Assembly: GCA_963665845.2 (NCBI GenBank)
Contig: OY762492.1
Coordinates: forward strand, 1,856,001 to 1,920,000
Length of the DNA stretch: 64,000 nt
Source: Candidatus Poribacteria bacterium
GTDB taxonomy: Bacteria > Poribacteria > WGA-4E > GCA-2687025
Reading direction: 5' to 3'
The notes beneath the pieces were generated by a model, which did no database searches, was not told where the DNA came from, and worked only from the letters and a program-made list of their open reading frames with translations. Both the position numbers and the translations under genes were made by a program. Positions 30,113-50,371 of the stretch are shown here, one piece after another (the first letter of the stretch is position 1; every line of letters begins with the position of its first letter).

Positions 30113-32455
30113 TTATTTCAACAGAACCATGCGCCGCGTTTCTGAAAAGCTGCCCGCCTCAATGCGGACGAAATAGACGCCGCTGGCGGCGGGCGCGCCG
30201 AGGGCGTCCTTGCCGTCCCAGTACGCCGCTTTCTCTTTAGCGCGGTAGGAACCTGCCGGCAGTTCGCCCAGCTCCAACCGCCTGACCGTTTGACCCGCCG
30301 AGTCGTAGATTGAGATCGTCACGGCTCTTTCTTGCGCCAAATCGAACGGGATCCACGTTTCGGGGTTGAACGGGTTCGGGTAATTCGGCAGAAGCGCGTT
30401 CTTGAAAAGAAGAGGCGAATTAGGGCGTTTAACGTCTGACCAGAAAACAGGTTGATCTTCAAACCTCCACAGCAGAACGCGCCCGTCTTTTCCGCCGCTC
30501 ACAAGCGAACGGCTGTCGGGAGAAAACGCGACCGCGTTCACCCACCCGACATGCCCTCTAAACGTCTTCTTCAGCGCAAATGTTTTGGCGCTCCAAATCC
30601 GTACCGTCCCGTCCTTTCCTCCGCTGGCGATATGCTGTCCGTCAGGCGAATACGCCAAAGCATAAACGGCGCCCTCATGACCGATCATCTTTCCTCTCAA
30701 CGCGCCGTTCTTCGCGCTCCAAACGCGCGCGATGGAGTCTTCTCCTCCAACCGCTATGGATCCTCCGCTCGGCGACAACGCCAGCGCATGAACAGACTTG
30801 ACCCCTTCCACGGTGCGAAGAATCTCCCGCGTCTCCACATCCCAAAGATGGACGTTTACCTCGCTCCCAGAAGCGGCTAAAACGGTTCCGTCTTCTGAAA
30901 ACGCCAGATTAGAAGCCCATCCGCTCGGAGACGTGAACGCCTCCTCCGTCCTTCCCGTTAAGACGTTCAAGAAACGTATGTCGCCGCGGCGATTGGCCGC
31001 ATTGTTGTTGAAGGCGATCTTCTTTCCGTCGGGAGAATAGGCAAACGAACTGGGAGAGTAACCTCTCAATTCCATGATCGTCCTCCCCGTTTCCGCGTCC
31101 CATACGCCGATCATATTGTTGTAGCTGACGCTGGCGATGGTTTGCCCATCCGGCGAAAACGCGGACGGTCCAGAATAGGTTCTGATATGCCTCTTCTCCT
31201 CTCCGGTTGAAACATCCCAGATGCGAATGCCCTCATCGGCGCCCCATATATCGTTGCAGGAGCTGGCGACAGAAAGCCCATCCGGTGAAAACGACAGAGA
31301 CGCAATCTCCGAACTTCCCGCAACGAAGAATTGAGCGTTCAGCCGCCCCTGGATGTCCAAACGAGCGAACTCGGCCTCCCGAAGCGGCATGAACATCCTC
31401 GCCAAAAGCAGGCTGTTTGAGGAGAGCAGGACATAGTTCCGATTGCCAGCCTCTACGACCGACGCCAGATCCGTTGCCTCTACATCCCAAATCTGAATCG
31501 TCCTCGTACCGCGTTCCCTGTTGTCTCTTGAAGCGGCCATGAATCGGCTGTCAGGCGAGAAAACCGGCGGGCTAAAACCTTCCTCAAACATGATCAGCTC
31601 CTCACCCGTTCTCGGGTCCCAAAGACCGGCCTTCCCGCCGTTGTACGCCGTCAGCGCGCTCCCGTCCGGCGCAAACCTAACGTTCGTGAGATTCCCGCCA
31701 AACTCAAGCAGATTCTGCCCAGTTTCCACATCCCAAACATGGACAGACGCAACAACCTTTTGGTCGTACTTTGTATAGCTGACGCTGGCGATGGAGCGGT
31801 TGTCTGGAAGGAACGCAATGCGGCCATCATACGGATACGGCTGCCACCATCCCCGCGAATCGACCGGGGTCTTGAAGCGCGTTTTCAGCTCCCCTGCGGC
31901 TGCGTCCCAAATATACGCTTCCTCATCCCCGGCGCCGGCGGCAAGCCGCCCGTCATGCGAAAAAACAAGCGATGCGATCTCCTCGCTGGAAGCCTCCAGC
32001 TCCCTCTTCAGCTCCCCTGTTTCCACATCCCAAAGCCGTATGGAGTTGTCCCGTTTCTTGACAGCGACGGTCCGCCCGTCAAAAGAATAAGCGAACGAAC
32101 GGACGTTGTCTAATTCGCGCGAAACCGCCTTTAGCTCCCCCGACGCAACATCCCAAATGCGGAAGTCTGAAAAACTACGCCCAACAAGATAGCGGCCGCC
32201 GTCCTTGAACTCCAGCCAGTTCACCTCCTGACGAAACTCCGCCATCGAATGAATTATCCGCCCGGTTTGAGCGTCTAAAAGCCGCACAATCCCATTCGTG
32301 TCGCCCGCCGCAAGCAGTTCGCTGTCAGCGGACAATGCCGCCCGCATGACAGAGCCAGGGTGGCGCGCAAGAACCCTCTGCGCTTCCCCTTCGTCAACCA
32401 AGAGAAGCCAACACGCCAAACCGATCCATGCCAAGCATGCCCCGCGTTTCATCAT
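30113..32455 (-). CDS. Secreted WD40-repeat protein with CTD (copy 7)
   Basis: Same architecture as the other copies. Confidence 0.92.
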   Translation of the reverse strand: MMKRGACLAWIGLACWLLLVDEGEAQRVLARHPGSVMRAALSADSELLAAGDTNGIVRLLDAQTGRIIHSMAEFRQEVNWLEFKDGGRYLVGRSFSDFRIWDVASGELKAVSRELDNVRSFAYSFDGRTVAVKKRDNSIRLWDVETGELKRELEASSEEIASLVFSHDGRLAAGAGDEEAYIWDAAAGELKTRFKTPVDSRGWWQPYPYDGRIAFLPDNRSIASVSYTKYDQKVVASVHVWDVETGQNLLEFGGNLTNVRFAPDGSALTAYNGGKAGLWDPRTGEELIMFEEGFSPPVFSPDSRFMAASRDNRERGTRTIQIWDVEATDLASVVEAGNRNYVLLSSNSLLLARMFMPLREAEFARLDIQGRLNAQFFVAGSSEIASLSFSPDGLSVASSCNDIWGADEGIRIWDVSTGEEKRHIRTYSGPSAFSPDGQTIASVSYNNMIGVWDAETGRTIMELRGYSPSSFAYSPDGKKIAFNNNAANRRGDIRFLNVLTGRTEEAFTSPSGWASNLAFSEDGTVLAASGSEVNVHLWDVETREILRTVEGVKSVHALALSPSGGSIAVGGEDSIARVWSAKNGALRGKMIGHEGAVYALAYSPDGQHIASGGKDGTVRIWSAKTFALKKTFRGHVGWVNAVAFSPDSRSLVSGGKDGRVLLWRFEDQPVFWSDVKRPNSPLLFKNALLPNYPNPFNPETWIPFDLAQERAVTISIYDSAGQTVRRLELGELPAGSYRAKEKAAYWDGKDALGAPAASGVYFVRIEAGSFSETRRMVLLK

Positions 32456-32466
32456 CCAATTTCCTT

Positions 32467-34791
32467 TTATTTCAACAGAACCATGCGCCGCGTTTCTGAA
32501 AAGCCGCCCGCCTCAATGCGGACAAAATAGACGCCGCTAGCCGCCGGCGCGCCGAGGGCGTCCTTGCCGTCCCAGTACGCCGCCTTCTCTTTAGCGCGGT
32601 AGGAACCCGCCGGCAGTTCGCCCAGCTCCAACCGCCTGACCGCTTGACCCGCCGAGTCGTAGATTGAGATCGTCACGGCGCTTTCTTGCGCCAGATCGAA
32701 CGGAATCCACGTTTCGGGGTTGAACGGGTTCGGGTAATTCGGGAGGAGCGCGTTCTTGAATAAAAGAGGCGAATTCGGGCGCTTGACGTCTGACCAGAAA
32801 ATCGGCAGGTCTTCAACGCTCCACAGCAGAACGCGGCCATCCTTCCCGCCGCTGATAAGCGAAAGGCTGTCGGGGGAAAACGCAACGGAGCTCACATACC
32901 CGACATGCCCGGTCAACGTTCTTTTAAGTTCAAACGTCTCGGCGTCCCAGATGCGTATCGCCCCGTCATCGTCCCCGACAGCGATCAGCGCGCCGTCGGG
33001 CGAATAGGCGGCGGAGACAACGGCTCCTTCATGCCCTTCCAGCTCCGCCCGCAGCGCGCCGTATCGAACACCCCAGAGACGCGCAGCCGAATCCTCCCCG
33101 CCGGTCAAGAGCGTTTTGCCGTCCGGCGAGAAGGCAAGCGTTTTCACACGCTCTCCATCCGCAAACGTTCGAATCAAATTGCCCGATTCGGAATTCCACA
33201 AAAACGCCCCGTCATACCCCCCGACCGCCAGCGTTTGGCCGTCCGGCGAATACACAATCGAACTAGGCGCCCATTGATCTCCTTTCAGGTCTGAAAACAC
33301 GTCGCCGGAATCGATCCGCCAGATATGGACGTCTTTGCCTTGATAGTTGTAATCGGTGAACGCGAGCGATTTGCCGTCCGGCGAAAATGCAAGCGACGAC
33401 GGTCTGTAGTCCGCCAATTCCGCTGCAATCTCTCCCGTCTCGGCGTTCCTAATCTGTATGCCGTCATATTTCAAGGCTGCGATGTATTGACCGTCCTGCG
33501 AAAGAGCCGCAGGCCCCTTATAATATCCGTACTGCGCAGTCGCCTGTCCTGTTAAAAGATCCCAAATCCGAATCGAGCTGTCCCCAGTCCAAATGCGCCG
33601 AGGCGAGCTGAAGACGTATCGGCCGTCAGGCGAAAGAGAAACGGACGCAATCGGCGTGTTGTTCGCGGGCGCCTCGCCTTTTACCTCTCCCGTCTCGATG
33701 TCCCAGACGCGTGTTGTTCTGGACCGATAATAGTCTTCCCAAACGGGGGTTGAGGCGGCCGTACGCCCGTCCGGCGACAGCGCCGCCAGATATAAGATTC
33801 CCCGAAACGTCGAGACAATTTCCCCTGTCTCCGCATCCCATATTTGCGCCTGATTCGAATCGTATCCGACGACCAATTTGCTGCTGTCTTCTGAGAAGAA
33901 CTGCCGATCGGACGCAACAAAAGAATCCCTTCGGTTTGTCCTTAGAATCCTCTCCGTTTCCAGTTCCCACAGGGTAACGACATCGTTGCCGTTCACGGTT
34001 AGCAGCCTTCGTCCGTCGGGAGAGAACTTGGCGATCTCAAAATCTCCGCCAAAGGAGGATGTCATCTTCCCTGTTTTCACATCCCATATCTCCGCCGTTC
34101 CGGTTCCGTCCCCGTATTCGTATCTGAAGCGAACGCGCGCCATCGACTGGTTGTCGGGAAGAAACGCAATGGGGGAACGAGACGCCCTACTCCGTCCAGG
34201 AATGCTGATCCGATGTTTTACCCGCAGCGTCTCAGCGTTCCAAATATAGAGACCGTCTTCCCAAGGAGCGGCAATTAGCAGCCCGTCATGCGAATAAACC
34301 ATAGAACCTAGATGAACGCCGACATCCTCCAACTCCCCTTTCATCTTCCCCGACAGAAAATCCCAGACGCTCACAACGCTGTATTCGTTGCGGACGGCGA
34401 TCGTTCGCCGGTCCGGCGACAGGGCGACATCGTAACAAATGCCCAATTTGTCCGAAATTGGGAGACGTTCGCCGGTCTTCAGGTCATGCGCCTGCAGCCT
34501 GGAAAAGCTGGAGTTGAGTAGATAGCGGCTCCCGGGCCAAAAGCGCATCCAGTCCACCTCCGATATATTGCCGTCCAGCGTCTGTATGAGCGTTCCTGTT
34601 GAGTAGTCCCAGAGCTGTATCGCCCCGCCTTCCCCGCCGCTCGCAAGCGTCTTGCCGTCAGGAGACAGCGCCAACGAAGCGTCGCTTCCTGGATGCGCCC
34701 CAACAACTCTCTGCGCAAAGCCGTCCGCCGCCGACAGCCAAAATGCCGCCAGCGCCGCCAAAATCGATGCCGCTGTCCGTCTCATCATCAA
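32467..34791 (-). CDS. Secreted WD40-repeat protein with CTD (copy 6, first gene after the internal promoter)
   Basis: Same architecture; AGGAGG RBS upstream. Confidence 0.92.
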   Translation of the reverse strand: MMMRRTAASILAALAAFWLSAADGFAQRVVGAHPGSDASLALSPDGKTLASGGEGGAIQLWDYSTGTLIQTLDGNISEVDWMRFWPGSRYLLNSSFSRLQAHDLKTGERLPISDKLGICYDVALSPDRRTIAVRNEYSVVSVWDFLSGKMKGELEDVGVHLGSMVYSHDGLLIAAPWEDGLYIWNAETLRVKHRISIPGRSRASRSPIAFLPDNQSMARVRFRYEYGDGTGTAEIWDVKTGKMTSSFGGDFEIAKFSPDGRRLLTVNGNDVVTLWELETERILRTNRRDSFVASDRQFFSEDSSKLVVGYDSNQAQIWDAETGEIVSTFRGILYLAALSPDGRTAASTPVWEDYYRSRTTRVWDIETGEVKGEAPANNTPIASVSLSPDGRYVFSSPRRIWTGDSSIRIWDLLTGQATAQYGYYKGPAALSQDGQYIAALKYDGIQIRNAETGEIAAELADYRPSSLAFSPDGKSLAFTDYNYQGKDVHIWRIDSGDVFSDLKGDQWAPSSIVYSPDGQTLAVGGYDGAFLWNSESGNLIRTFADGERVKTLAFSPDGKTLLTGGEDSAARLWGVRYGALRAELEGHEGAVVSAAYSPDGALIAVGDDDGAIRIWDAETFELKRTLTGHVGYVSSVAFSPDSLSLISGGKDGRVLLWSVEDLPIFWSDVKRPNSPLLFKNALLPNYPNPFNPETWIPFDLAQESAVTISIYDSAGQAVRRLELGELPAGSYRAKEKAAYWDGKDALGAPAASGVYFVRIEAGGFSETRRMVLLK

Positions 34792-34819
34792 GCCTCCTGT
34801 TGCCTCTCAACGCTTGCTT

Positions 34820-34835
34820 AGCAAAATTGGCGCCA
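34820..34835 (-). promoter_or_regulatory. Putative sigma-54 -24/-12 promoter
   Basis: Minus strand TGGCGCCAATTTTGCT (GG-N10-GC), in the only long gap of the array, ~30 bp before the start codon. Confidence 0.75.
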
Positions 34836-34875
34836 GACCAGAAACCGCCTATTTGCGAAAATACTCGCCGAAAAA

Positions 34876-34912
34876 CGTACGTTATGGTACGCCTCCCGGA
34901 CGAAAACGTACG
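34876..34912. promoter_or_regulatory. Two putative activator (UAS) sites
   Basis: CGTACGTTATGGTACG (34876) and CGGACGAAAACGTACG (34897), 21 bp apart. Confidence 0.5.
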
Positions 34913-34919
34913 CCCCGAG

Positions 34920-37262
34920 TTATTTCAACAGAACCATGCGCCGCGTTTCTGAAAAGCCGCCCGCTTCGATGCGGACGAAATAGACGCCGCTGGCGGCAGG
35001 CGCGCCGAGGGCGTCCTTGCCGTCCCAGTACGCCGCCTTCTCTTTAGCGCGGTAGGAACCCGCCGGCAATTGCCCCAGCTCCATGCGCCTGACCATTTGA
35101 CCCGCCGAATCATAGATCGCGATCGTCACGGCGCTTTCTTGCGCCAGATCGAACGGAATCCACGTTTCAGGGTTGAACGGGTTTGGGTAATTCGGCAGAA
35201 GCGCGTTCTTCAAAAGAAGAGGCGAATTCGGACGCTTCACGTCTGACCAGAAAACAGGTAGCTCTTCAAACCTCCACAGCAGAACGCGCCCATCCTTTCC
35301 GCCGCTCACAAGCGATTTACTGTCGGGAGAAAACGCAACCGCGTTCACCCAACCTGCATGCCCCCTCAACGTCTTCTTCAGGTCATATGTCTTGGCGCTC
35401 CAAATCCGTACCGTCCCGTCCTTTCCTCCGGTGGCGATGTGCTGTCCGTCAGGCGAATACGCCAAAGCATGAACGGCGCCCTCATGACCAATCATCTTTC
35501 CTGTCAACGCGCCGTTCTTCGCGCTCCAAACGCGCGCGATGGAATCTTCTCCTGCAACCGCTATCGATTCCCCGCTCGGCGACAACGCCAGCGCATGAAA
35601 ATACCCGACCGCTTCCACGGTTTGAAGAATCTCCCGCGTCTCCACATCCCAAAGATGGACGTTTTCCTCGCTCCCAGAAGCGGCTAAAACGCTTCCGTCT
35701 CCTGAAAAGGATAGATTGTAAATCCGCCCGCTCGGAGCCGTGAGCGCTTCCTCCGTTGTTCCCGTTGAGATGTCCAAAAAACGCACGACCCCTTGTTCCT
35801 TGGCAGCATTGCTGTTGAAGGCGAGCGTCTTTCCATCAGGGAAATAGGCAAACGAACCGGAAGAGTAGCCTTCCAATTCCACGATCTGCTCCCCTGTTTC
35901 CGCGTCCCATACGCCGATCATATCGCCGTATCTTCTGGCCGAGGCGACGGTCCGCCCGTCCGGCGAAAACGCGGATGGTCCAGAAAAGGCTTCGATATGC
36001 CTGTTCTCCTTCCCTGTTGAAACATCCCAGATGCGAATGCCGTAATCCGTGATCCATCCTTTTTCGCAGGAGCTGGCGACAGAGCGCCCGTCCGGCGAAA
36101 ACGACAACGACGCAATCTCCGAACTTCCCGGAACTAAGAATTGAGCGGTCTCCCGCCCCTGAATGTCCCAACGAGTGAACTCTGCCCCCCAAAGCGTTAT
36201 GACGATCGTCGCCGTCAACAGACCACTCGACGACAAGAAAGCATGGTACTTATCGCCGCTCTCTATGACCGACCTCAGATCCTTTGTCTCCACATCCCAA
36301 ATTTGAATCGTTGTCGTATCGCTTTCCCTGTTGTATCTTGAAGCGGCCATGAGCCTGCTGTCAAGTGAAAACCTAGGCGCGCCAAACCCCTCCTCAAATG
36401 CGACCAGCTCCTCCCCTGTTCTGAGGTCCCAGAGACCGGCATTTCCGCCGTTGTACCCCGCCAGCGCGCTTCCGTCCGGCGCAAACCTGGCGCCCGTAAA
36501 ATAGTCCCCAAAATCAAGCTGATTCTGCCCAGTTTCCGCATCCCATACATGGACAGCCGCAATATCCCTTTGGTCGCGCGTTGTATAGGTAACGCTGGCG
36601 ATGGAGCGGCTGTCGGGAAGGAACGCAATGCGGTGATCATGCGGATACAAAACCCGCCTTGCCCGCGAATCAGACGGCGTCTTGAAGCGCGTTTTCAGTT
36701 GACCCGTTGCCGCGTCCCAAATATAAACATCCTCATCTCCGGCGCCGGCGGCAAGCCGCCCGTCAGGAGAAAAAGCAAGCGCGTCAATATCCTCGCTGAC
36801 AGCCTCTATCTCCCTCTTCAGCTCCCCCGTTTCCACATCCCAAAGCTTTACGGGGCCGTCCCATTTCTTGGCAGCGACGGTCCGCCCGTCAGAAGAAAAA
36901 GCGAACGGACTGACGAGGTCCAATTCGCGCGAAACAGCCTTCAGCTCCCCCGACGCCGCATCCCAAATGCGAAGGTTCGAAAAACTGTACCCAACAAGAT
37001 ACCGATCGCCCCCCTTGAACCCCAGCCAGTCCACTTCCTGACAAAACTGCGCCATCGAATGAATGATCCGCCCGGTTCGAGCGTCCAAAAGCCGCACAAG
37101 TCCATTCGTGTCGCCCGTCGCAAGCATCTCCCCGTCAGCCGACAGCGCCGCCTCATAGACGGTTCCAGGATGCTGCCCAACAATCCTCTGCGCAAAACCG
37201 TTCGCAGCCGACAGCCAAAATACTGCCAATGCAGCCAAAATCGACACCGCAGCCCGTCTCAT
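34920..37262 (-). CDS. Secreted WD40-repeat protein with CTD (copy 5)
   Basis: Same architecture as the other copies. Confidence 0.92.
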   Translation of the reverse strand: MRRAAVSILAALAVFWLSAANGFAQRIVGQHPGTVYEAALSADGEMLATGDTNGLVRLLDARTGRIIHSMAQFCQEVDWLGFKGGDRYLVGYSFSNLRIWDAASGELKAVSRELDLVSPFAFSSDGRTVAAKKWDGPVKLWDVETGELKREIEAVSEDIDALAFSPDGRLAAGAGDEDVYIWDAATGQLKTRFKTPSDSRARRVLYPHDHRIAFLPDSRSIASVTYTTRDQRDIAAVHVWDAETGQNQLDFGDYFTGARFAPDGSALAGYNGGNAGLWDLRTGEELVAFEEGFGAPRFSLDSRLMAASRYNRESDTTTIQIWDVETKDLRSVIESGDKYHAFLSSSGLLTATIVITLWGAEFTRWDIQGRETAQFLVPGSSEIASLSFSPDGRSVASSCEKGWITDYGIRIWDVSTGKENRHIEAFSGPSAFSPDGRTVASARRYGDMIGVWDAETGEQIVELEGYSSGSFAYFPDGKTLAFNSNAAKEQGVVRFLDISTGTTEEALTAPSGRIYNLSFSGDGSVLAASGSEENVHLWDVETREILQTVEAVGYFHALALSPSGESIAVAGEDSIARVWSAKNGALTGKMIGHEGAVHALAYSPDGQHIATGGKDGTVRIWSAKTYDLKKTLRGHAGWVNAVAFSPDSKSLVSGGKDGRVLLWRFEELPVFWSDVKRPNSPLLLKNALLPNYPNPFNPETWIPFDLAQESAVTIAIYDSAGQMVRRMELGQLPAGSYRAKEKAAYWDGKDALGAPAASGVYFVRIEAGGFSETRRMVLLK

Positions 37263-37277
37263 CGTCCATTCTCCTCT

Positions 37278-39608
37278 TTATTTCAACAGAACCATGCGCC
37301 GCGTTTCTGAAAAGCTGCCCGCCTCAATGCGGACGAAATAGACGCCGCTGGCGGCGGGCGCGCCGAGGGCGTCCCTGCCGTCCCAGTACGCCGCTTTCTC
37401 TTTAGCGCGGTAAGAACCTGCCGGCAATTTGCCCAGTTCCAACCGCCTTACGGTTTGACCCGCCGAGTCGTAGATCGTTATCGTCACGGCGCTTTCTTGC
37501 GCCAGATCGAACGGAATCCAGGTTTCGGGGTTGAACGGGTTTGGGTAATTCGGGAGGAGCGCGTTCTTGAAAAGAAGAGGCGAATTCGGGCGTTTAACGT
37601 CTGACCATAAAACAGGTTGATCTTCAAATCTCCACAGCAGAACGCGCCCATCCTTCCCGCCGCTCACAAGCGATATGCTGTCGGGGGAAAACGCAACGGA
37701 GCTCACATACCCGATATGCCCTGTCAACGTTCGTTTCAATTCAAACGTCTCGGCGCTCCATATGCGGACGGCGCTGTCGTCGCCGGCGCTGGCGATGTAA
37801 CGTCCGTCCGGCGAATAAGCGACAGCGCGAATCTTGCCCTCATGCCCGCGCAGCCTCGTCTGCTGCGCGCCGTTCTTGACGCTCCACACTCGAATCATCG
37901 AATCCTCGCAACCGGCCGCGGCGAAACGGCCGTCCGCCGACAACGCCAACGAATCGATCAGCGATTTAGAGGTCAACGTACGGACAAGCGCGCGCGTTTC
38001 GACGTTCCAGATATGAATATCGGAGCCGTCGCCTTCAGCGGCGAGTGTCAACCCGTCGCTCGAAATTGCCAGTATGGACAGGGAATCGCTGGGTGAGTGG
38101 AACGCCTCGACCGCCTCGCCTGTCGCCGCGTTCACATAGCGTACGGTACCGCCTCCGTGGAAAGATTGAGTGAAGGCAAGCTGCTCTCCGTCCGATGTGA
38201 AGACGAACGATCTAGGCGTGTAGCCGTTTAATTCCATGACCGTCTCGCCCGTTTCCGCGTCCCAGACGGCGAGTCCTTTGTGAATGCCGACGCCTGCGAT
38301 ATAGCGTCCGTCCGGCGAGTACACGACCGAGCCTACTTCGGCTTTGAAGCGGAACTTTTCTTCCCCTGTTGAGATGTCCCAGACGCGAATGTTATCATCC
38401 GTGAGCCATCCAATGTTGCGCGAGCTGGCGGCGAAGCGTCCGTCCGGCGAGAACGAAACCGAGTGAATCCCGGTACTGCCGTGAACGGAGTAGCGATGCT
38501 TTTGCTGAGTCTCCATATCCCAATAATCGATGGAGCTGTCTGCGAGCGTTAGCCGTGTTGCCAGCAGCCAACCATTCGATGACAACAGAATGCCGCCCCA
38601 GTATGCGCTGCCATAGGCCGCAATCCGCTGCTTTGTTTTCACATCCCAAACATGAAGCGGGGTCGTTCTGTTCAGAATATCCCATCCGAGGGCTGCGATC
38701 ATCCGCCCGTCTGTAGAGAAGGTTGAGTCTCGGAAATCGTCAGGCAATTCCATCCAGACGGCTCCTGTTTCCAGATCCCATAGACGAGTCGTTCCGCTGC
38801 CTTCCTCCTTGAGAAGGCTGCCGTCCGGTGAGAAAAGAGCATTGTAAAGATGAACGTCGAAGGCGCGCCGTTCTTGTCCCGTTTTCACATCCCACACATG
38901 AACCAAATCGGTTTGTGGATCGGAATGTTTTTTACGGCTCAAGCTCGCGATGGATCGGTCATCGGGCAGGAACGCAATGCGGTAATTGGAGGGGCGGGGA
39001 ACCGTTTTGAAATCGTCCAGGGGCGTCTTGAAAGAGGCGGTCAACCGTTTCGTTTCCAGGTCCCAGATATAAATGTCCTCCGCGCCGGCGCCGGCAACGA
39101 GAAGCCCTTTATGAGAAAACACAAGCGCCGTCAGCTCCTCGCTGACAGCCTCCAGCTCCCCCTCCATCTCTCCAGTTTCTACATCCCAAATCTGTACGGG
39201 ATTGTCCCTTTTCCAGGCGGCGATGGTTCTGTTGTCCGGCGAAAAAGCGGAGACGATGGCGCCTGCCAATTGATGCGAAACAGCCTTCATCTCTCCGGTC
39301 TTAACATCCCATATCCGCGGCTCACGAAAATCGGACGCGACAAGATAGCGGTTCGTTGCCCAAAATTGCGTCCAGTACACGTCCCATCGAAACGCTCCCA
39401 GCGCATGAATCATCCGCCCGGTTCGAGCGTCCAAAAGCCGCACAAGTCCATTCGCGTCGCCCGTTGCAAGCAGCTCTCCGTCCGACGACAACGCTGTCGC
39501 CATGACAAACCCAGGATGCCGCCCAACAACTCTCTGCGCAAAACCGTTCGCAGCCGACAGCCAAAATACTGCCAATGCAGCCAAAATCGACACCGCAGCC
39601 CGTTTCAT
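37278..39608 (-). CDS. Secreted WD40-repeat protein with CTD (copy 4)
   Basis: Same architecture as the other copies. Confidence 0.92.
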   Translation of the reverse strand: MKRAAVSILAALAVFWLSAANGFAQRVVGRHPGFVMATALSSDGELLATGDANGLVRLLDARTGRMIHALGAFRWDVYWTQFWATNRYLVASDFREPRIWDVKTGEMKAVSHQLAGAIVSAFSPDNRTIAAWKRDNPVQIWDVETGEMEGELEAVSEELTALVFSHKGLLVAGAGAEDIYIWDLETKRLTASFKTPLDDFKTVPRPSNYRIAFLPDDRSIASLSRKKHSDPQTDLVHVWDVKTGQERRAFDVHLYNALFSPDGSLLKEEGSGTTRLWDLETGAVWMELPDDFRDSTFSTDGRMIAALGWDILNRTTPLHVWDVKTKQRIAAYGSAYWGGILLSSNGWLLATRLTLADSSIDYWDMETQQKHRYSVHGSTGIHSVSFSPDGRFAASSRNIGWLTDDNIRVWDISTGEEKFRFKAEVGSVVYSPDGRYIAGVGIHKGLAVWDAETGETVMELNGYTPRSFVFTSDGEQLAFTQSFHGGGTVRYVNAATGEAVEAFHSPSDSLSILAISSDGLTLAAEGDGSDIHIWNVETRALVRTLTSKSLIDSLALSADGRFAAAGCEDSMIRVWSVKNGAQQTRLRGHEGKIRAVAYSPDGRYIASAGDDSAVRIWSAETFELKRTLTGHIGYVSSVAFSPDSISLVSGGKDGRVLLWRFEDQPVLWSDVKRPNSPLLFKNALLPNYPNPFNPETWIPFDLAQESAVTITIYDSAGQTVRRLELGKLPAGSYRAKEKAAYWDGRDALGAPAASGVYFVRIEAGSFSETRRMVLLK

Positions 39609-39623
39609 CGTCCATTCTCCTCT

Positions 39624-41942
39624 TTATTTCAACAGAACCATGCGCCGCGTTTCTGAAAAGCTGCCCGCCTCAATGCGGACGAAATACATCCCGCTTGCCG
39701 CTGCCGCGCCGAGGGCGTCTCTGCCGTCCCAGTACGCCGCTTTCTCTTTAGCGCGGTAGGAACCTGCCGGCAATTTGCCCAGTTCCAACCGCCTTACGGT
39801 TTGACCCGCCGAGTCGTAGATCGTTATCGTCACGGCGCTTTCTTGCACCAAATCGAACGGAATCCACGTTTCAGGGTTGAACGGGTTCGGGTAATTCGGG
39901 AGAAGCGCATTCTTCAAAAGAAGAGGCGAATTCGGACGCTTCACGTCTGACCAGAAAACAGGTTGATCTTCAAATCTCCATAGCAGAACGCGCCCATCCT
40001 TCCCGCCGCTCACAAGCGAACGGCTGTCGGGAGAAAACGCAACCGAGTTCACCCACCCGACATGCCCCGTCAACGTGTTTTCCAGCTCATACGTCTCGCC
40101 GTTCCAGATGCGTATCGCGCCCCCTTCGTCCGCGGCAGCGATAAGCCCTCCGTCAGGCGAATAGGCGGCGGAGCGGATCAACCCGTCATGCCCTCTCATC
40201 TCCGCCTTCAGTTCGCCGCTGGATATATCCCAGAGACGCGCCGCCGAGTCGTCTCCTCCGGTCAAAAGCGCGCGGCCGTCCGGCGAGAAGGCGAGCGCCC
40301 TCACAACCTCTCCATCCGCAAACGTTCGAATCAGATCGCCCGATTCGGAATGCCATAAAAACGCCCCGTCGTTTCCGCCGACCGCCAGCATACTCCCGTC
40401 CGGCGAATACGCAAGCGAACGCGCGCTCCGCTGATCGCCTTTCAGCTCCGCAGACGCCCCGCCCGAATCGATCCGCCATATATAAACGCCTTTGCGTTGA
40501 GAGTTGGGATTAATGAACGCGATCGATTTGCCGTCCGGCGAAAACGTGAACGACCGCGATTCGTAGTCTGCCAACTCCGCTGCGATCTCCCCCGTCTCGG
40601 CATTTTTAATCTGTATGCCTCTGTCCGATACAAGGGAGGCAATCCATCGACCGTCATGCGAAAACTCCGCATGCCCCCCGTAAGTCCAGTACTTCGCCTT
40701 TTCCCGCCCCGTTAAAAGATCCCAAATCCGAATCGACCTGTCCCCGGACCAGATGCGCATAGGCGAGCTGAGGATGCAGCGGCCGTCAGGAGAAAAAGAA
40801 ACGGACTCAATCGGCGTGTGGTTCGCGGGCGCCTCCCCTTTCACCTCTCCTGTCTCGATGTCCCAGACGCGCGTTCTGGACCGATCATAGCCATCCCAAA
40901 CGACGGTTGAAGAGGCGGCTGTCCGTCCGTCCGGCGACAGCGTTGTACCGTATACGCTCCCGTTAAACGTCGAGACGAGGTTCCCCGTCTCCGCATCCCA
41001 AATTTGCCCCGTATTCGAATCGAAGCCGACGACCAACTTGCCGCTGTCTTCTGAGAAGAAAGGCTGCGCATACGTATTGGACGGCCTTCGATTTGTCTGT
41101 AAAATCATTCCCGTTTCCAGTTCCCACAGCGCAACGATCTGGCTGCCGCTCACGCTCAACAGCCTTCGTCCGTCGGGAGAGAACGCGGCTTGGCTCAAAT
41201 CTCCGCCAAAAGACAATCTCATCGTACCTGTTTCCAAGTCCCATATCTCTGCCGTTCCGGTTGCGTCGCGGTCTTCTCTTTTGAAGCGAACGAGCGCCAT
41301 TGACCGGTTGTCGGGAAGGAACGCAATGCGGTACCGATACTCCAAAACCTGTCCAGGAATGCTGATCTGATGTTTCATCTGCAGCGTTTCAGCGTTCCAA
41401 ATAATAACGCCGCCTTTCCAGGAGCCGGCAATCAGCCGCCCGTCATGCGAATGAATCAGCGAATCAAGATGAACGCCGACATTTTCCAATTTTCCCATCA
41501 TCTCCCCAGACATCAAATCCCAGACGCTCAAAGCGTTGGAATAGTCGTAGACAGCGATCGTTCGCCGGTCCGGCGACAGGGCGACATCCCAACAAATGCC
41601 CAGTTGATCGGAAATCGGGAGACGCTCGCCGGTCTTCACATCATGCGCCTGCAGCCTGTAAAAGCTGGAGCTGACAAGATAGCGGCTATCCGGCCAAAAG
41701 CGCATCCAGTCCACCTCCGCATGATGCCCTGCCAGCGTCCGTATGAGCGTTCCTGTTGAGTAGCGCCAGAGCTGTATTGTTCCGCTGTCCCCGCCGCTCG
41801 CAAGCGTTTTTCCGTCCGGCGACAACGCCAACGAAGCGATCGTTCCTGGATGCGTCCCAACAACCTTCTGCGCAAAACCGTTCTCAACCGGCAGCCAAAA
41901 TGCCGCTAACGCCGCCAAAATCGACACCGCAGCCCGTCTCAT
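39624..41942 (-). CDS. Secreted WD40-repeat protein with CTD (copy 3)
   Basis: Same architecture; closest to copy 6. Confidence 0.92.
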   Translation of the reverse strand: MRRAAVSILAALAAFWLPVENGFAQKVVGTHPGTIASLALSPDGKTLASGGDSGTIQLWRYSTGTLIRTLAGHHAEVDWMRFWPDSRYLVSSSFYRLQAHDVKTGERLPISDQLGICWDVALSPDRRTIAVYDYSNALSVWDLMSGEMMGKLENVGVHLDSLIHSHDGRLIAGSWKGGVIIWNAETLQMKHQISIPGQVLEYRYRIAFLPDNRSMALVRFKREDRDATGTAEIWDLETGTMRLSFGGDLSQAAFSPDGRRLLSVSGSQIVALWELETGMILQTNRRPSNTYAQPFFSEDSGKLVVGFDSNTGQIWDAETGNLVSTFNGSVYGTTLSPDGRTAASSTVVWDGYDRSRTRVWDIETGEVKGEAPANHTPIESVSFSPDGRCILSSPMRIWSGDRSIRIWDLLTGREKAKYWTYGGHAEFSHDGRWIASLVSDRGIQIKNAETGEIAAELADYESRSFTFSPDGKSIAFINPNSQRKGVYIWRIDSGGASAELKGDQRSARSLAYSPDGSMLAVGGNDGAFLWHSESGDLIRTFADGEVVRALAFSPDGRALLTGGDDSAARLWDISSGELKAEMRGHDGLIRSAAYSPDGGLIAAADEGGAIRIWNGETYELENTLTGHVGWVNSVAFSPDSRSLVSGGKDGRVLLWRFEDQPVFWSDVKRPNSPLLLKNALLPNYPNPFNPETWIPFDLVQESAVTITIYDSAGQTVRRLELGKLPAGSYRAKEKAAYWDGRDALGAAAASGMYFVRIEAGSFSETRRMVLLK

Positions 41943-41957
41943 CGTCCATTCTCCTCT

Positions 41958-44306
41958 TTATTTCAACAGAACCATGCGCCGCGTTTCTGAAAAACTGCCC
42001 GCCTCAATGCGGACGAAATAGACGCCGCTGGCGGCGGGCGCGCCGAGGGCGTCCCTGCCGTCCCAGTATGCCGCTTTCTCTTTAGCGCGGTAGGAACCCG
42101 CCGCTAATTGCCCCATCTCCATGCGCCTGACCATTTGACCCGCCGAGTTGTAGACCGAGATCGTCACGGCGCTTTCTTGCGCCAGATCGAACGGTATCCA
42201 CGTTTCGGGGTTGAACGGGTTTGGGTAATTCGGGAGGAGCGCGTTCTTGAAAAGAAGAGGCGAATTCGGACGCTTCACGTCTGACCAGAAAACAGGTTGA
42301 TCTTCAAATCTCCACAGCAGGACGCGGCCGTCTTTTCCGCCGCTCACAAGCGAACGGCTGTCGGGAGAAAACGCAACCGAATTCACATGCCCGAAATGCC
42401 CCCTCAATGTCTTCTCCAGCTGAAACGTCTTGGCGCTCCAAATCCGTACCGTTCCGTCTTTGCCTGCGCTGGCGATACGCTGTCCGTCAGGCGAATACGC
42501 TACAGCATGGACGGCGCCCTCATGTCCGGTCATCTTTCCTCTCAAGGCGCCGTTCTTTGCGCTCCAGACGCGCACAATCGAATCCTCGTCTCCAACCGCT
42601 ATGGATCCCCCGCTCGGCGACAACGCCAGCGCATAATCCGCATAAATAGACCCAACCTCTTCCACGGTTCGAAGAATCTCCCTCGTCTTCACATCCCAAA
42701 GATGGACGCTTCCCCTGCCAACGGCAGCTAAAACGCTTCCGTCTTTTGAAAACTTCAGCTCCGAAGCCCGCCCGCTCGGAGCCGTGAGCGCCTCCTCCGC
42801 CTTCCCCGTTAAGATGTCCAGAAAGCGCACGATCCCTTGTTTATGAGCAGTGTCGTTAAAGGCGAGCGTCTTTCCGTCAGGAGAATAGGCAAACGAACTC
42901 GGAGAGCGGTCGCTCAATTCCAAGATCGGTTTTCCCGTCTCCGCGTCCCATACGCCGATCGCATAACGACCCGGTCTGACGCAGGCAACGGTCCGCCCGT
43001 CCGGCGAAAACGCGGAAGGTCCAGGATAGGCTTTGATATTCCTTTTCTCCTCCCCGGCGGAGACATCCCAAATGCGAATGGCATCGTCCAAGGACCAAAG
43101 CCCTCCTTCGGCGCACGAGCTGGCGACAAAGCGCCCGTCCGGCGAAAACGATAAAGACGCAATCTCCGAACTCCCCCATACTGAGAATTGAGCGGTTTGC
43201 CGCCCTTGAATGTCCCAGCGAGTGTACTCTGTGTCTTGAAACGGCGCGCTCCTCCTCGTTAACAGACCATTTGACGACAACAAAATTCGGTTCCGATGGC
43301 CGCTCTCTACGACCGACAACAGCTTTTTTGCCTCCATATCCCAAATTTGAATTGTCCTCGTACCGCTTTCCCTGTTGTCTCTTGAAGCGGCCATGAGCCT
43401 GCTGTCCGATGAAAAAATCGGTCGGCTAAAGCCCTCCTCAAACGCGATCAACTCCTCTCCCGTTCTCAAATCCCAAAGACGCGCCTTCCCGCCGCTGTAC
43501 GCCGTTAGGGCGCTTCCGTCCGGCGCTAACATGGCATCCGTGAGACCTTCCCCAAACTCAAACCGATTCTGCCCAGTCTCCGCATCCCAAACATGGACAG
43601 CGGCATGATCCTTTTGATCGTACCTTGTATGGCTAAGGCTGGCGATCAATCGGTTGCCGGGGAGGAACGCAATGCGGTAATCATGCAGATACGGCCGCCA
43701 TAACCGCGAATCAACCGGCGTTTTGAAGCGCGTTTTCAATTGACCCGCCGCCGCGTCCCAAATATAAACACTCTCATTCCCGGCGCCGGCGACGAGCCTT
43801 CCGTCATGCGAAAAAACAAGACCGTAAATACGATCGCTCACCGGCTCCATCTCTCTTTTCAGCTGCCCCGTTTCCACATCCCAAAGCTGTATTGCGTTGT
43901 CCGATTTCTCGGCGGCGATCGTCTGCCCGTCAGGAGAAAATGCGAATGCGCCGACGCTGTCCAATTCTTCCGATACCGACTTCAGCTTCCCATTCGCCGC
44001 ATCCCAAATGCGGATTTCTAAAAAACTAAACACAGCAAGATACCGGCCGCCCCCCTTGAACCCCAACCACTCGCCTTCCCATCTAGGCGCCTCCATCGAA
44101 TGAATCATGCGCCCTGTTTGAGCGTCCCAGATCCGCACAAGCCTATTTGTGTCCCCCGTTGCAAGCAGCTCCCCGTCAGACGACAACGCCGCCTGGTAAA
44201 TAGTTCCAGGATGCCGCCCAACAACCCTCTGCGCTTCCCCCTCGTCAACCAAGAGAAGCCAACACGCCAAGCCCGCCAATGCCAAACATGCCCCGCGTTT
44301 CATCAT
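41958..44306 (-). CDS. Secreted WD40-repeat protein with CTD (copy 2)
   Basis: Same architecture; likely start MMKRG at 44306 after AAGGAG. Confidence 0.92.
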   Translation of the reverse strand: MMKRGACLALAGLACWLLLVDEGEAQRVVGRHPGTIYQAALSSDGELLATGDTNRLVRIWDAQTGRMIHSMEAPRWEGEWLGFKGGGRYLAVFSFLEIRIWDAANGKLKSVSEELDSVGAFAFSPDGQTIAAEKSDNAIQLWDVETGQLKREMEPVSDRIYGLVFSHDGRLVAGAGNESVYIWDAAAGQLKTRFKTPVDSRLWRPYLHDYRIAFLPGNRLIASLSHTRYDQKDHAAVHVWDAETGQNRFEFGEGLTDAMLAPDGSALTAYSGGKARLWDLRTGEELIAFEEGFSRPIFSSDSRLMAASRDNRESGTRTIQIWDMEAKKLLSVVESGHRNRILLSSNGLLTRRSAPFQDTEYTRWDIQGRQTAQFSVWGSSEIASLSFSPDGRFVASSCAEGGLWSLDDAIRIWDVSAGEEKRNIKAYPGPSAFSPDGRTVACVRPGRYAIGVWDAETGKPILELSDRSPSSFAYSPDGKTLAFNDTAHKQGIVRFLDILTGKAEEALTAPSGRASELKFSKDGSVLAAVGRGSVHLWDVKTREILRTVEEVGSIYADYALALSPSGGSIAVGDEDSIVRVWSAKNGALRGKMTGHEGAVHAVAYSPDGQRIASAGKDGTVRIWSAKTFQLEKTLRGHFGHVNSVAFSPDSRSLVSGGKDGRVLLWRFEDQPVFWSDVKRPNSPLLFKNALLPNYPNPFNPETWIPFDLAQESAVTISVYNSAGQMVRRMEMGQLAAGSYRAKEKAAYWDGRDALGAPAASGVYFVRIEAGSFSETRRMVLLK

Positions 44307-44317
44307 CCAATCTCCTT

Positions 44318-46651
44318 TCATTTTAAAAGAACCATGCGCCGCGTTTCTGAAAAGCTGCCCGCCTCAATGCGGACGAAATAGACGCCGCTGGCGGCGGGCG
44401 CGCCGAGGGCGTCCCTGCCGTCCCAGTACGCCGCCTTCTCTTTAGCGCGGTAGGAACCTGCCGGCAATTTGCCCAGTTCCAACCGCCTTACGGTTTGACC
44501 CGCCGAGTCGTAGATCGTTATCGTCACGGCGCTTTCTTGCGCCAAATCGAACGGAATCCACGTTTCAGGGTTGAACGGGTTTGGGTAATTCGGCAGAAGC
44601 GCGTTCTTCAAAAGAAGAGGCGAATTCGGGCGTTTAACGTCTGACCATAAAACAGGTTGATCTTCAAACCTCCACAGCAGGACGCGGCCGTCTTTTCCGC
44701 CGCTCACAAGCGATTTGCTGTCGGGAGAAAACGCAACCGCGTTCACCCACCCGACATGACCCCTCAACGTCTTCTTCAGCGCAAACGTTTTGGCGCTCCA
44801 GATCCGTACCGTCCCGTCCTTTCCTCCGCTGGCGATACGCTGTCCGTCAGGCGAGTACGCCAAGGCATGAACGGCGCCCTCATGACCAATCATCTTTCCT
44901 GTCAACGCGCCGTTCTTCGCGCTCCAGACGCGCGCGACCGAGTCTTCTCCTGCAACCGCTATCGATTCCCCGCTCGGCGACAACGCCAGCGCATGAACAT
45001 ACCCGAACCCTTCCACCGTTCGAAGAATCTCCCGTGTCTCCATATCCCAAAGATAGACCTTCTCCTCGCTCCCAGAAGCGGCTAACAAGCTTCCGTCTCT
45101 TGAAAACGTCAGCTTAGAAATCCATCTGCTAGGAGACATGAGCGTCTCCTCCGCCTTCCCGGTTGAGATGTCTAAGAAACGCACGACCTCTTGTTTCTTG
45201 ACCGCGTCATCGAAGGCGAGCGTCTTTCCGTCAGGAGAATAGGCAAACGAACTGGGAGAGTAGCCGTTCAATTCCACGATCTGCTCGCCTGTTTCGGCGT
45301 CCCATACGCCGATCGTGTCATCATGGCTGACGCCGGCGACGGTCCGCCCGTCCGGCGAAAATATGGACGGTTCAGAATAGGTACGGATATGCCTCTTTTC
45401 CTCCGCGGTTGAAACGTCCCAGATGCGAATGCCTTCATCTGTGAGCCATATATCGTTGCAGGAGCTGGCAACAAAAAGCCCGTCCGGCGAAAACGACAAC
45501 GACTCAATTTCCGAAGTACCCGCAACTGAGAATTGAGCGGTCTCCCGTCCCTGTATGTCCATACGAGTGAACTCTGCCGCTCGAAGCACCATGATCATCC
45601 TCGTCAACAACAGACCATTTGACGACAGCAAAATATAGTACTGATCGCGGTTCTCTATGACCGACGCCAGATCCCTTGCCTTCACATCCCAAATTTGAAT
45701 CGTCCTCGTATCGCTTTCCCTGTCGTATCTTGAAGCGGCCATGAACCTGCTGTCTGGTGAAAAACCTGATGGGCCAAACCCCTCCTCAAACTCGATCAGC
45801 TCCTCTCCAGTTCTGAGGTCCCAAAGACTGGCCTTTCCGTCGTTGCGCGCCGCGAGCGCGCTTCCGTCCGGCGCAAATCTGGCTCCCGTGAGATAGCCGC
45901 CAAACTCAAGCAGATTCTGTCCCGTTTCCGCATCCCAAACATGGACAACCGCAATATCCTGTCGGTCGTGTATGGTACGGGTAAGGCTGGCGATGGAGCG
46001 GTTGTCTGAAAGGAACGCAATGCGGTAATCCCGCGGATACAATATCCCCCTATCCAGCGAGTCGACCGGCGTCTTGAAGCGCGTTTTCAGCTCCCCTGTC
46101 GCCGCGTCCCAAATATAAACGCCCTCCTCCCCGGCGCCGGCAACAAGCCGCCCGTCATGCGAAAAAACAAGCGATTCCACCTCCTCGATGACAGCCTCCA
46201 GCTCCCTCTTCAGCGCCCCCGTTTCCACATCCCAAAGCCGTATGGGGGCGTCCCATTTATTGGCGGCGACGGTCCGCCCGTCAGGAGAGAAAGCGAACGG
46301 ATAGACGCGGTCCAATTCGCGCGAAACAGCCTTCAGCTCCCCCGACGCCGCGTCCCAAATGCGAAGGTTTAAAAAACTGTACGCAACAAGATAGCGGCCG
46401 CCCTTGAACCACAGCCTGTCCACTTCCTGACGAAACTCTGCCATCGAATGAATTATCCGCCCGGTTCGAGCGTCTACAAGCCGCACAATCCCATTCGAGT
46501 CGCCCGCCGCAAGCAGCTCGCCGTCAGCGGACAATGCCGCTGCCATGACAGACCCAGGATGCCGCCCAACAACTCTCTGCGCTTCCCCCTCGTCAACCAA
46601 GAGAAGCCAACACGCCAAGCCCGCCAAAATACAGATCGCCGTTCGCCTCAT
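44318..46651 (-). CDS. Secreted WD40-repeat protein with CTD (copy 1)
   Basis: Same architecture; likely start MRRT at 46651 after AAGGAG. Confidence 0.92.
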   Translation of the reverse strand: MRRTAICILAGLACWLLLVDEGEAQRVVGRHPGSVMAAALSADGELLAAGDSNGIVRLVDARTGRIIHSMAEFRQEVDRLWFKGGRYLVAYSFLNLRIWDAASGELKAVSRELDRVYPFAFSPDGRTVAANKWDAPIRLWDVETGALKRELEAVIEEVESLVFSHDGRLVAGAGEEGVYIWDAATGELKTRFKTPVDSLDRGILYPRDYRIAFLSDNRSIASLTRTIHDRQDIAVVHVWDAETGQNLLEFGGYLTGARFAPDGSALAARNDGKASLWDLRTGEELIEFEEGFGPSGFSPDSRFMAASRYDRESDTRTIQIWDVKARDLASVIENRDQYYILLSSNGLLLTRMIMVLRAAEFTRMDIQGRETAQFSVAGTSEIESLSFSPDGLFVASSCNDIWLTDEGIRIWDVSTAEEKRHIRTYSEPSIFSPDGRTVAGVSHDDTIGVWDAETGEQIVELNGYSPSSFAYSPDGKTLAFDDAVKKQEVVRFLDISTGKAEETLMSPSRWISKLTFSRDGSLLAASGSEEKVYLWDMETREILRTVEGFGYVHALALSPSGESIAVAGEDSVARVWSAKNGALTGKMIGHEGAVHALAYSPDGQRIASGGKDGTVRIWSAKTFALKKTLRGHVGWVNAVAFSPDSKSLVSGGKDGRVLLWRFEDQPVLWSDVKRPNSPLLLKNALLPNYPNPFNPETWIPFDLAQESAVTITIYDSAGQTVRRLELGKLPAGSYRAKEKAAYWDGRDALGAPAASGVYFVRIEAGSFSETRRMVLLK

Positions 46652-46687
46652 CGTCCCAGCTCCTTCCACGCCTATTCAGGAGCGTTA

Positions 46688-46703
46688 CGCAAAAAGGGCG
46701 CCA
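46688..46703 (-). promoter_or_regulatory. Putative sigma-54 -24/-12 promoter
   Basis: Minus strand TGGCGCCCTTTTTGCG (GG-N10-GC), 36 bp before the first WD40 start. Confidence 0.75.
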
Positions 46704-46720
46704 ACAAAGCAGACCGATAT

Positions 46721-46789
46721 TGTCCAAATTGAGAGCGAAAACGGGAGCCGCTGTCCAAATTATGAACAGCGCTGTATCAAAAATGGACA
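46721..46789. promoter_or_regulatory. Putative enhancer-binding-protein sites (TGT-N11-ACA)
   Basis: TGTCCAAATTATGAACA (46752) and TGTATCAAAAATGGACA (46773), plus partial TGTCCAAATT (46721); spacings 21 and 31 bp. Confidence 0.6.
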
Positions 46790-46800
46790 GGCGCGGGGAT

Positions 46801-47058
46801 TTATTCGCCCAAGAGAGCGTTGATCGCGCGGGCGAGCGCGGCGTCTTTCTCCGTCACGGCGTCCGCGTCATGCGTCCATAACGAAAACACGGTGGTGCGG
46901 TACACATTCAGAATTTCAGGGTGGTGATCCATCCGCTCCGCCTCATAGCCGACCGCGTTGATCAAGAGCAGCGCCGACTTAAAATCGCGCGTCTTCACCT
47001 CCCGAACGAGCCGCCCGTCTTTCATCTCCCAGCCGGGAACGTTCCATTTTTCTGCCAT
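46801..47058 (-). CDS. Pterin-4-alpha-carbinolamine dehydratase
   Basis: AERMDHHPEI...WTHDADAVTEKD motif; likely start MAEKW. Confidence 0.9.
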   Translation of the reverse strand: MAEKWNVPGWEMKDGRLVREVKTRDFKSALLLINAVGYEAERMDHHPEILNVYRTTVFSLWTHDADAVTEKDAALARAINALLGE

Positions 47059-47105
47059 TATCGGTATCCTTTCTATGTTTATGATACCATGGAGCCGCAT
47101 ACGAC

Positions 47106-47981
47106 ATGAACGATACAAGCCCCCGCCGCTTCCCTCTTTACGGCGTTCTTGGGCTGGCGCTCATTCTCGCCGCCCAAGCATGCGCCGCATACGATTATTT
47201 CAACGACGGCGCCAACGCCGCCGCCCATCGCGTCAGCCTCCATGCAACCGCAATCTGCTGGTGGGGGTATATCCTATTCATCGACGCATGGATACGGCGC
47301 ATGAAAGGCGAGTCGCTCCTGACGACGCGCCGCGCCGAGTTTGCCGTCATGCTGCCGCTTTCCGTTATTTTTTGGGTTCTGTTTGAGTTTTACAACTTCC
47401 ATCTCATCAACTGGCGGTACGAGGGGCTGTCGCATCTTCACTGGGAGCGGATCATCGGGTCGACAGCGGCGTTTGCGACCGTCCTGCCGGGCGTCCTGCT
47501 GACAAGCGAATGGCTGGACGCAAAGGGTGTTTTCCGCAACCTGAAAATCGAACCGCTGCGCGTCGACGGACGGCTCACCTTCGGGCTGATCCTGTTCGGG
47601 ACGGTATGCGCGGTCGTTCCGCTCATGCTGCCGCAGGCGTGGGCGAAATACGCCTTCGCGCCGGTTTGGATCGCGTACGCGTTCATGCTGGATCCGATCA
47701 ACCGCGCGAACGGGGCGCCCTCCTTGCTCGCCGACTTTGAACGCGGGCACCTGGGAAAGGCGGCGTCTCTCTTTGCGGCGGGACTGCTCTGCGGCTTCTG
47801 GTGGGAATCATGGAACTGGTTTGCGGCGGCGAAATGGAAATACCAGGCTCCGTTCACGCCCGGCATCTCCATCTTTGAGATGCCGATGGCGGGCTTTTTG
47901 GGCTTCGCGCCGTTTGCATGGGAGCTGTATGCGATGTACCATTTTGTATGGGCGGTTGGGCGGTCGCCGCGGAGGAAATGA
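47106..47981 (+). CDS. Conserved hypothetical integral membrane protein
   Basis: About 8 TM segments; internal repeat FEFYN...NWRY / WESWN...KWKY; FEMP..GFLGF.PF. Confidence 0.75.
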   Translation: MNDTSPRRFPLYGVLGLALILAAQACAAYDYFNDGANAAAHRVSLHATAICWWGYILFIDAWIRRMKGESLLTTRRAEFAVMLPLSVIFWVLFEFYNFHLINWRYEGLSHLHWERIIGSTAAFATVLPGVLLTSEWLDAKGVFRNLKIEPLRVDGRLTFGLILFGTVCAVVPLMLPQAWAKYAFAPVWIAYAFMLDPINRANGAPSLLADFERGHLGKAASLFAAGLLCGFWWESWNWFAAAKWKYQAPFTPGISIFEMPMAGFLGFAPFAWELYAMYHFVWAVGRSPRRK

Positions 47982-48036
47982 GGCGATCTGCCGTCTGGAA
48001 ACATCAGCGAATTCGATTCGCTCCAAGGCGTCTTTA

Positions 48037-50243: not shown

Positions 50244-50371
50244 CTCAACAGCCTCCCGCTCAAAACCGCCCTATCAGTTTAGCGCCGGAACGGCCGCATA
50301 GCAAGCGGGCGCCGTAAGATTTCCATGCCGGCTGGATGCAAACGCGGCGGCGTTCGGATATACTTAACGGC

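Follow-up and report, generated by a model that had tools for sequence, protein, structure and literature searches.

Sigma-54 needs a bacterial enhancer-binding protein (bEBP), and the control of sigma-54 sites by such proteins, like the use of internal promoters, is a textbook mechanism. In one system of this kind, the PEP-CTERM/PrsK-PrsR regulon, a 17-nt activator motif, sometimes repeated, lies about 60 nt upstream of the sigma-54 site, an arrangement that was likewise inferred from sequence alone (Haft et al. 2006, PMC1569441). In the roc genes of Bacillus subtilis, the RocR site is upstream for one promoter and downstream for another, with an enhancer 1.5 kb downstream of its promoter (PMC4941409). 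The uncultured Poribacteria are noted for their extensive families of secreted, eukaryote-like repeat proteins, among them WD40 proteins with a Por-secretion C-terminal domain (TIGR04183 tails); the study that described these WD40 proteins reports no secretion machinery, and the word "sigma" is absent from its main text (Kamke et al. 2014, PMC3909097). No publication on sigma-54 control in Poribacteria was found among the top-ranked literature matches, supplements being outside the scope, and "Poribacteria" is absent from the main text of PMC12316311. Here we describe a tandem array of nine WD40 genes in a stretch of 64,000 nucleotides (the window; G000:C1:1856001-1920000) from a Candidatus Poribacteria genome (G000; 3.98 Mb, 90% complete). 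The array has two predicted sigma-54 promoters, PA before the first gene and PB inside the array, each with its own paired enhancer motif (motif A and motif B, respectively).

The nine genes, W1 to W9, encode proteins of 754-781 aa and run on the minus strand from window position 46651 down to 25487. Every protein has a signal-peptide-like start (judged by eye), WD40 repeats and a near-identical tail. With true start codons, the intergenic gaps are 11-15 bp with a single long exception, just as the initial annotation had stated; the first gap is 11 or 14 bp, depending on the choice between two adjacent ATGs, and the value of -4 bp from the open reading frame (ORF) caller is an artefact. The long gap, between W5 and W6, measures 128 bp to a TTG at 34791, or 131 bp to an ATG at 34788. 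The best explanation of the locus as a whole, which we regard as likely, is that its two sigma-54 sites and two paired enhancer motifs serve two different enhancer-binding ATPases, each probably bound to one of the motifs. The signal received by the PA activator would then switch on W1-W9, and that received by the PB activator only W6-W9.

Both promoters have the -24/-12 element TGGCGCC-N4-TTGC exactly where it had been annotated, and both were recovered by a sigma-54 matrix trained on 15 sites outside the window, a held-out test that is mildly circular in that the training sites were chosen by a consensus which PA and PB also match. Eight positions of contig C1 score as high as PA, and 48 as high as PB. 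The gene rpoN, whose absence had been named as a ground for rejecting sigma-54 control, is present (PF04552, 195 bits), as it is in 39 of 41 genomes. Eight of 11 matches to PF00158 in G000 are strong, and bEBPs that combine a C-terminal helix-turn-helix with the sigma-54-contacting loop are present: seven of the eight retain the loop, two with one-residue variants. A Pfam scan of 44 window ORFs found no activator family, in agreement with the earlier statement that the window lacks an activator gene. The checks suggested at that time, a genome scan with a sigma-54 matrix and both enhancer motifs and a list of regulators, have thus been run, and they returned both promoters, both pairs and the eight bEBPs.

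The enhancer sites were likewise borne out. The TGT-N11-ACA sites described upstream of the array, 21 bp apart with a partial site 31 bp away, correspond to motif A, and the internal pair of CG(T/G)ACG-N4-NGTACG sites, again 21 bp apart, corresponds to motif B (Table 1). With matrices trained outside the window, the array's A pair scores 45.3 bits and its B pair 40.6 bits. Contig C1 has four strong A pairs at 42.9-46.5 bits, the next best being 17.2 and the best from 12 column-permuted matrices 28.5; it has 11 B pairs of at least 20 bits, followed by one at 15.1, and 12 permuted matrices gave no such pair (maximum 19.8). The recovery of both pairs is far beyond chance. Strong pairs are spaced at 21 bp, less often at 30-31 and once at 22, that is, by about two or three helical turns. 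The two motifs are distinct, with negative cross-scores for all eight A sites on the B matrix and all 14 B sites on the A matrix.

Table 1. Coordinates (window numbering) of the array genes, predicted promoters and enhancer sites
Feature	Position	Strand	Remarks
Motif A distal site, 17-bp dyad	46773..46789		kept in congener locus L013
Motif A proximal site	46752..46768		21 bp from distal A site
Third A site, partial	46721..46737		31 bp further in; 6.6 bits; similar partial site in L013 and at G000 1853978
PA, predicted sigma-54 -24/-12 element	46688..46703	-	24.6 bits held out; kept in L013; predicted start near 46677
W1	44318..46651	-	signal peptide + WD40 repeats + T9SS (type IX secretion system) type A/FlgD-Ig-like C-terminal domain; TIGR04183 34.0 bits, cut-off 23
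W2	41958..44306	-	W1 architecture; W1-like type
W3	39624..41942	-	W1 architecture; W6-like type
W4	37278..39608	-	W1 architecture
W5	34920..37262	-	W1 architecture; W1-like type
Motif B distal site, 16-bp dyad	34897..34912		7 bp beyond W5 stop; kept and duplicated in L013
Motif B proximal site	34876..34891		21 bp from distal B site; also core of RNA hairpin with poor U-tract
PB, predicted internal sigma-54 -24/-12 element	34820..34835	-	16.1 bits held out; congener orthologue 22.3; predicted start near 34809
W6	32467..34788	-	first gene past PB; TIGR04183 33.1 bits, cut-off 23
W7	30113..32455	-	W1-like type
W8	27836..30100	-	most divergent of nine
W9	25487..27823	-	last of nine

The two motifs also differ in their targets and their spread. 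All four strong A pairs of G000 lie within 90 bp of a sigma-54 site, and they lead the WD40 array, a locus for a TolB-like protein, an operon for a pentapeptide-repeat protein and a TonB-dependent receptor, and an operon for TonB and a prenyltransferase-repeat protein. The A pair pattern matches 7 of 41 genomes (control 0), and each of the five matches outside the genus is 86-89 bp from a -24/-12 site. Furthermore, the prenyltransferase-repeat gene is present in all 41 genomes, and among its 30 best-scoring loci (G000 counted) 17 have an A pair of at least 15 bits (the control reached at most 2.7), and a B pair is absent from all 30. The A pair at this locus is found 61-63 bp downstream of the promoter in G000, G001 and G002, and 86-122 bp upstream in families f2 and f8. 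The reader of motif A would be an old bEBP, common to the whole class, that otherwise acts on envelope genes.

The B pair pattern was found in 2 of the 41 genomes, both of the same genus (eight matches in G000 and four in G001; control 0), and orthologous B promoters are kept in G001. Single B-like sites do occur outside the genus; at none of the 12 loci inspected was there a second site 21 bp away or a sigma-54 site less than 1 kb distant. Besides W6-W9, upstream B sites stand before a solo WD40 gene (G000 97480-99768) whose B promoter is similar to PB, an array of six genes whose small exported products end in a short C-terminal tail, and three further genes. The targets appear to be mostly exported proteins with C-terminal sorting tails. 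From this distribution, motif A is apparently old and class-wide, and motif B is restricted to this genus among the genomes searched. Most of the cargo genes are outside both regulons, since only 7 of 56 long-tail proteins of G000 have a sigma-54 site at the 5' end. A second kind of short C-terminal tail occurs on 74 G000 proteins, often in tandem arrays, and only two of these have a 5' sigma-54 site, both tied to motif B. In two other genomes (G029, loci L201, L211 and L214; G015, locus L200), an AT-rich repeat contains a B-like dyad plus a half site at a distance of 31 bp; it has six copies in G029, the three copies examined carry no sigma-54 sites, and it is perhaps the end of a mobile element.

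A congener has the two-promoter layout too. The closest named locus, L013, comes from a Candidatus Poribacteria metagenome-assembled genome and is 77% identical over W6. It consists of PA, a W1-like and a W4-like gene, PB, a W3/W6-like and a W9-like gene (four genes, 2+2), and it keeps both promoters and both enhancers. The sorting-domain DNA is 90-96% identical among W1-W7 and W9 (about 87% for W8), and at most 89% identical to the congener copies; overall, the copies of one species resemble each other more than those of the other. Signal-peptide segments have been shuffled among bodies, W4 and W5 being 99% identical there and about 56% in their bodies. We infer that the two-promoter frame reflects shared ancestry and that gene number was altered by unequal recombination, which probably took place in the near-identical 3' sorting-domain DNA around the two-promoter layout.

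The activators themselves can be narrowed down to a few candidates. None of the eight bEBPs passes a named equivalog cut-off; the best NtrC score, for example, is 489.5 against a cut-off of 558.6, and neither motif is present at the promoter of an ammonium transporter (1807973). Reciprocal best hits across the class (over 99 proteins, with 7 loci left out) give 3680k, 3066k, 2964k, 691k and 3943k as candidate readers of motif A. For motif B, the best candidate is 3933k (G000 C1 3933045-3934505), with 691k second. A two-GAF kinase is linked to the 3933k activator, which a search at E<=1e-100 did not find in families f2, f6 and f8, all carriers of motif A, and whose recognition helix differs between this genus and the rest of the family; the likely reader of motif B would be a bEBP with a DNA-recognition helix that was altered in this genus. 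Two further proteins were set aside. For the sensor-less activator 1517k, the reason is a repeat motif of its own, found immediately downstream of it in G000, in G005 and, in two copies, in G001; in G000 (G000:C1:1517445-1518610) the gene is followed by this third repeat motif and a sigma-54 site, a layout present twice in G001 and once in G005. The 849k activator lacks the sigma-54 loop, though in both G000 and G001 it is followed by imperfect A-like sites at a spacing of 19 bp. At its locus (G000:C1:848249-850751; L070, L240) these sites are succeeded by a sigma-54 site that, at 28.8 bits, is the strongest in the genome and leads a sigma-70-family gene, an arrangement conserved in G001 and a possible sigma cascade. 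A sigma-54-like site (20.1 bits) was also noted at G000:C1:2741504, 380 bp ahead of a GroEL-like gene, with neither A nor B nearby.

Several observations weigh against the proposal of two sigma-54 sites read by two activators. PB scores only 16.1 bits in G000, the evidence for motif B comes from two related genomes (90% and 91% complete), and the helical phasing over all upstream sites is moderate (R 0.58-0.65). The recognition helix of 691k is also changed in the genus. Neither motif adjoins a bEBP gene in the loci scanned, apart from single A-like sites in G023 and G030, which is why the activators were assigned by exclusion; in G038, an A pair lies about 5.5 kb from one activator. Finally, the B dyad folds as an RNA hairpin (z -2.75 in G000 and -5.79 in the congener) followed by 4-5 U, so that partial termination is possible.

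The last point bears on the question of one operon or two. If the B hairpin, or the activator bound at B, ended transcription from PA, two activators would control separate five- and four-gene operons. The hairpin in the gap (a 13-pair stem with 6 GC pairs) is indeed the best-ranked terminator-like hairpin of 34000-48000, and in both species its folding surpasses that of all 200 shuffles. However, its tail is not a proper U-tract and the stem is the B enhancer dyad itself, so that read-through from PA is likelier. The A dyad folds too (z -3.09), B sites between divergently transcribed genes (G000 1146433, 1611825), where a terminator would serve no purpose, have a T-run as well, and the scan found 23 such hairpins as against 17.5 +/- 4.5 in shuffles. 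We consider separate operons unlikely; the units are probably nested, with W1-W9 transcribed from PA and W6-W9 from PB. The clean split into a five-gene and a four-gene operon in the initial annotation is thus overstated. Its idea of repertoire switching is also weakened, since both blocks share paralogue types: W7, in the second block, is 74-79% identical to W1, W2 and W5, and W3, in the first, is 73% identical to W6, leaving only W4 and W8/W9 as block-specific types. Its proposal of two different activators fares better and is well supported by the recurrence of two distinct motifs at other sigma-54 promoters, the negative cross-scores, the different spread of the motifs and the retention of both promoters in the congener.

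The remaining alternatives concern the role of motif B. It might be bound by a protein other than a bEBP, such as a CRP/NtcA-like protein or a repressor, that merely modulates PB; the 16-bp geometry fits the NtcA consensus given in the abstract of PMC3898017, and single B-like sites in other families lack sigma-54 sites. Arguing against this, a CRP/FNR-type helix-turn-helix was found in neither G000 nor G001 (control positive in 14 of 14), which makes a reader of the CRP/NtcA type unlikely, and all 11 B pairs are near sigma-54 sites or within an array led by them. Furthermore, the B promoters have no other enhancer candidate, and sigma-54 would still need its bEBP; the chance of this alternative seems slim. 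Slimmer still is that of a single activator of loose specificity that reads both motifs, with PB only boosting the distal genes of a long operon. Such an activator would account for the fact that both motifs are paired dyads 21 bp apart at similar distances from the promoter, and the B promoter at 1146521 also has a weak A-like single site (13.1 bits). Yet it fits poorly with the difference in length (17 and 16 bp) and the cross-scores, or with the occurrence of A, unaccompanied by B, in five genomes beyond the genus and at each of the orthologous loci tested. It is also hardly credible that the PB cassette is a passive relic, recombined in from a single-gene locus and now unused. The solo WD40 gene, with its similar B promoter, could have been such a source, and the congener retains a remnant of a gene end after PB. 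Nevertheless, despite divergence of the spacer, both B sites and the -24/-12 element of PB are conserved between the species, and further B sites are present in the congener. Two activators for two motifs remain the preferred explanation.

What is new here beyond the array is that B pairs also occur downstream of promoters, after genes or in coding sequence, like the Bacillus rocG enhancer. The 11 B pairs comprise four upstream of a promoter, one just past a gene, one in a gene, and five in genes of a second WD40 array. The pair just beyond a 3' gene end is 947 bp downstream of the promoter at 1397675 and is conserved in G001. The sigma-54-led genes of this locus (G000:C1:1396710-1398598, L236; L076 in G001), with a B pair past their 3' end, make it a candidate for a downstream enhancer of the rocG type. 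The first of the two G000 paralogues there is seemingly shortened (251 aa, without the tail). The intragenic pair is 225 bp downstream of the promoter at 3147434 and is again conserved in G001. The second array, of six genes with WD40 repeats and T9SS tails (G000:C1:950079-963938, L071), has sigma-54 sites before genes 1-3, none with an upstream enhancer; five of the six genes contain B-like pairs, and three of these pairs lie some 560 bp downstream of a promoter without an upstream site. The downstream pairs amount to three independent placements, in a genome of which only 0.6% is within 1 kb downstream of a 20-bit promoter. For the intragenic pairs, synonymous resampling gave p<0.001 in 6 of 8 paralogues, at a site that had been picked by scanning. 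Against their function, 2 of the 8 paralogue copies have decayed, and synonymous identity at the site is 0.77 compared to a median of 0.76.

A wider interpretation can be put forward tentatively. In this genus, an activator may have acquired a new specificity, for motif B, and the motif may have become an enhancer free of positional constraint through which whole arrays of secreted eukaryote-like proteins were captured. It would act upstream, just past the last gene, and intragenically about 0.2-0.55 kb downstream of promoters without an upstream site; the array's B pair could also loop back to PA. If so, a eukaryote-style enhancer network would sit atop the old regulon of envelope genes that motif A marks throughout the class, in a phylum that is uncultured, and the downstream and intragenic B pairs would widen the rare rocG-type arrangement from a single locus to a regulon.

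The products of the array had been called surface proteins. The sorting domain is of the T9SS type, with TIGR04183 above the cut-off in both proteins tested (W1 and W6), and surface export itself is likely from the predicted domains. All nine predicted signal peptides end in Ala before a Gln, a junction that resembles the Gln-first rule for exported proteins of Bacteroidota. A PorU-like C25 peptidase and two PorV-like genes are in the window (2843-9773 and 19289-20557), the PorV family scoring over and the PorU-like match under its cut-off. SprA_N scores over its cut-off in a 2225-aa frame near G000:C1 937272, and it matched all five genomes tested (four over the cut-off); a GldN search matched nowhere, controls included. 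In contrast to the account of Kamke et al., then, G000 does have SprA-like, PorV-family and PorU-like genes, candidate parts of a T9SS-like export apparatus.

Other features flank the array. Downstream (window 23522-25490), a DUF5683 gene, which has a sigma-70-like promoter of its own (25451-25423), is accompanied by two related lipoprotein-like genes, and the congener has these genes after its array in the same order, with one copy more. Upstream (window 50336-53853 and 57586-60699) are genes for a PLD/DpnI-like nuclease, a DNA methylase and a type ISP restriction-modification system, and the congener has other defence genes at this spot. Contigs of four runs of unrecorded type, from a single study that may be the source of the sequence, fill 30 of 30 bins of 29000-48000; no piece spans the array, and the joints, being short-sided and explicable by repeats, were not used.

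The analysis yields two defined enhancer motifs, target lists, predicted transcription starts and a short list of activators, so that the signal for these proteins becomes a testable question. Control of the array works like the PEP-CTERM/PrsR regulon, in that exported proteins with a C-terminal sorting signal are placed under an activator motif and a sigma-54 site, but the array is no member of that regulon. Its tail is T9SS type A, and there are two motifs and a tandem array rather than one motif and single-gene operons. None of the eight bEBPs exceeds the cut-off for PrsR (TIGR02915; best 378.7 vs 502.6 bits), none of the three bEBP-linked kinases exceeds that for PrsK (TIGR02916; best 101 vs 300), and W1 and W6 match TIGR04183, with no PEP-CTERM model among the matches listed. 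Furthermore, PrsR sites are described as never lying inside coding regions (PMC1569441), where B pairs of the array's genome do occur.

Activator sites within coding sequence are known from the Nla28/Nla6 system of Myxococcus xanthus, which also resembles the array in having internal sigma-54 promoters that would serve a subset of the genes of an operon; there, the sites are upstream of their promoters and act on genes for natural products and development rather than on arrays of paralogues with two activators (PMC7910581). The rocG-rocABC/RocR system of B. subtilis differs from the array in that one activator serves all roc promoters, the targets are metabolic and the control has been shown experimentally, whereas the array has two motifs and is known from its sequence alone. 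The two nonetheless share a layout of sigma-54 promoters in series, pointing in the same direction, with an activator site, predicted in the case of the array, in the intergenic gap.

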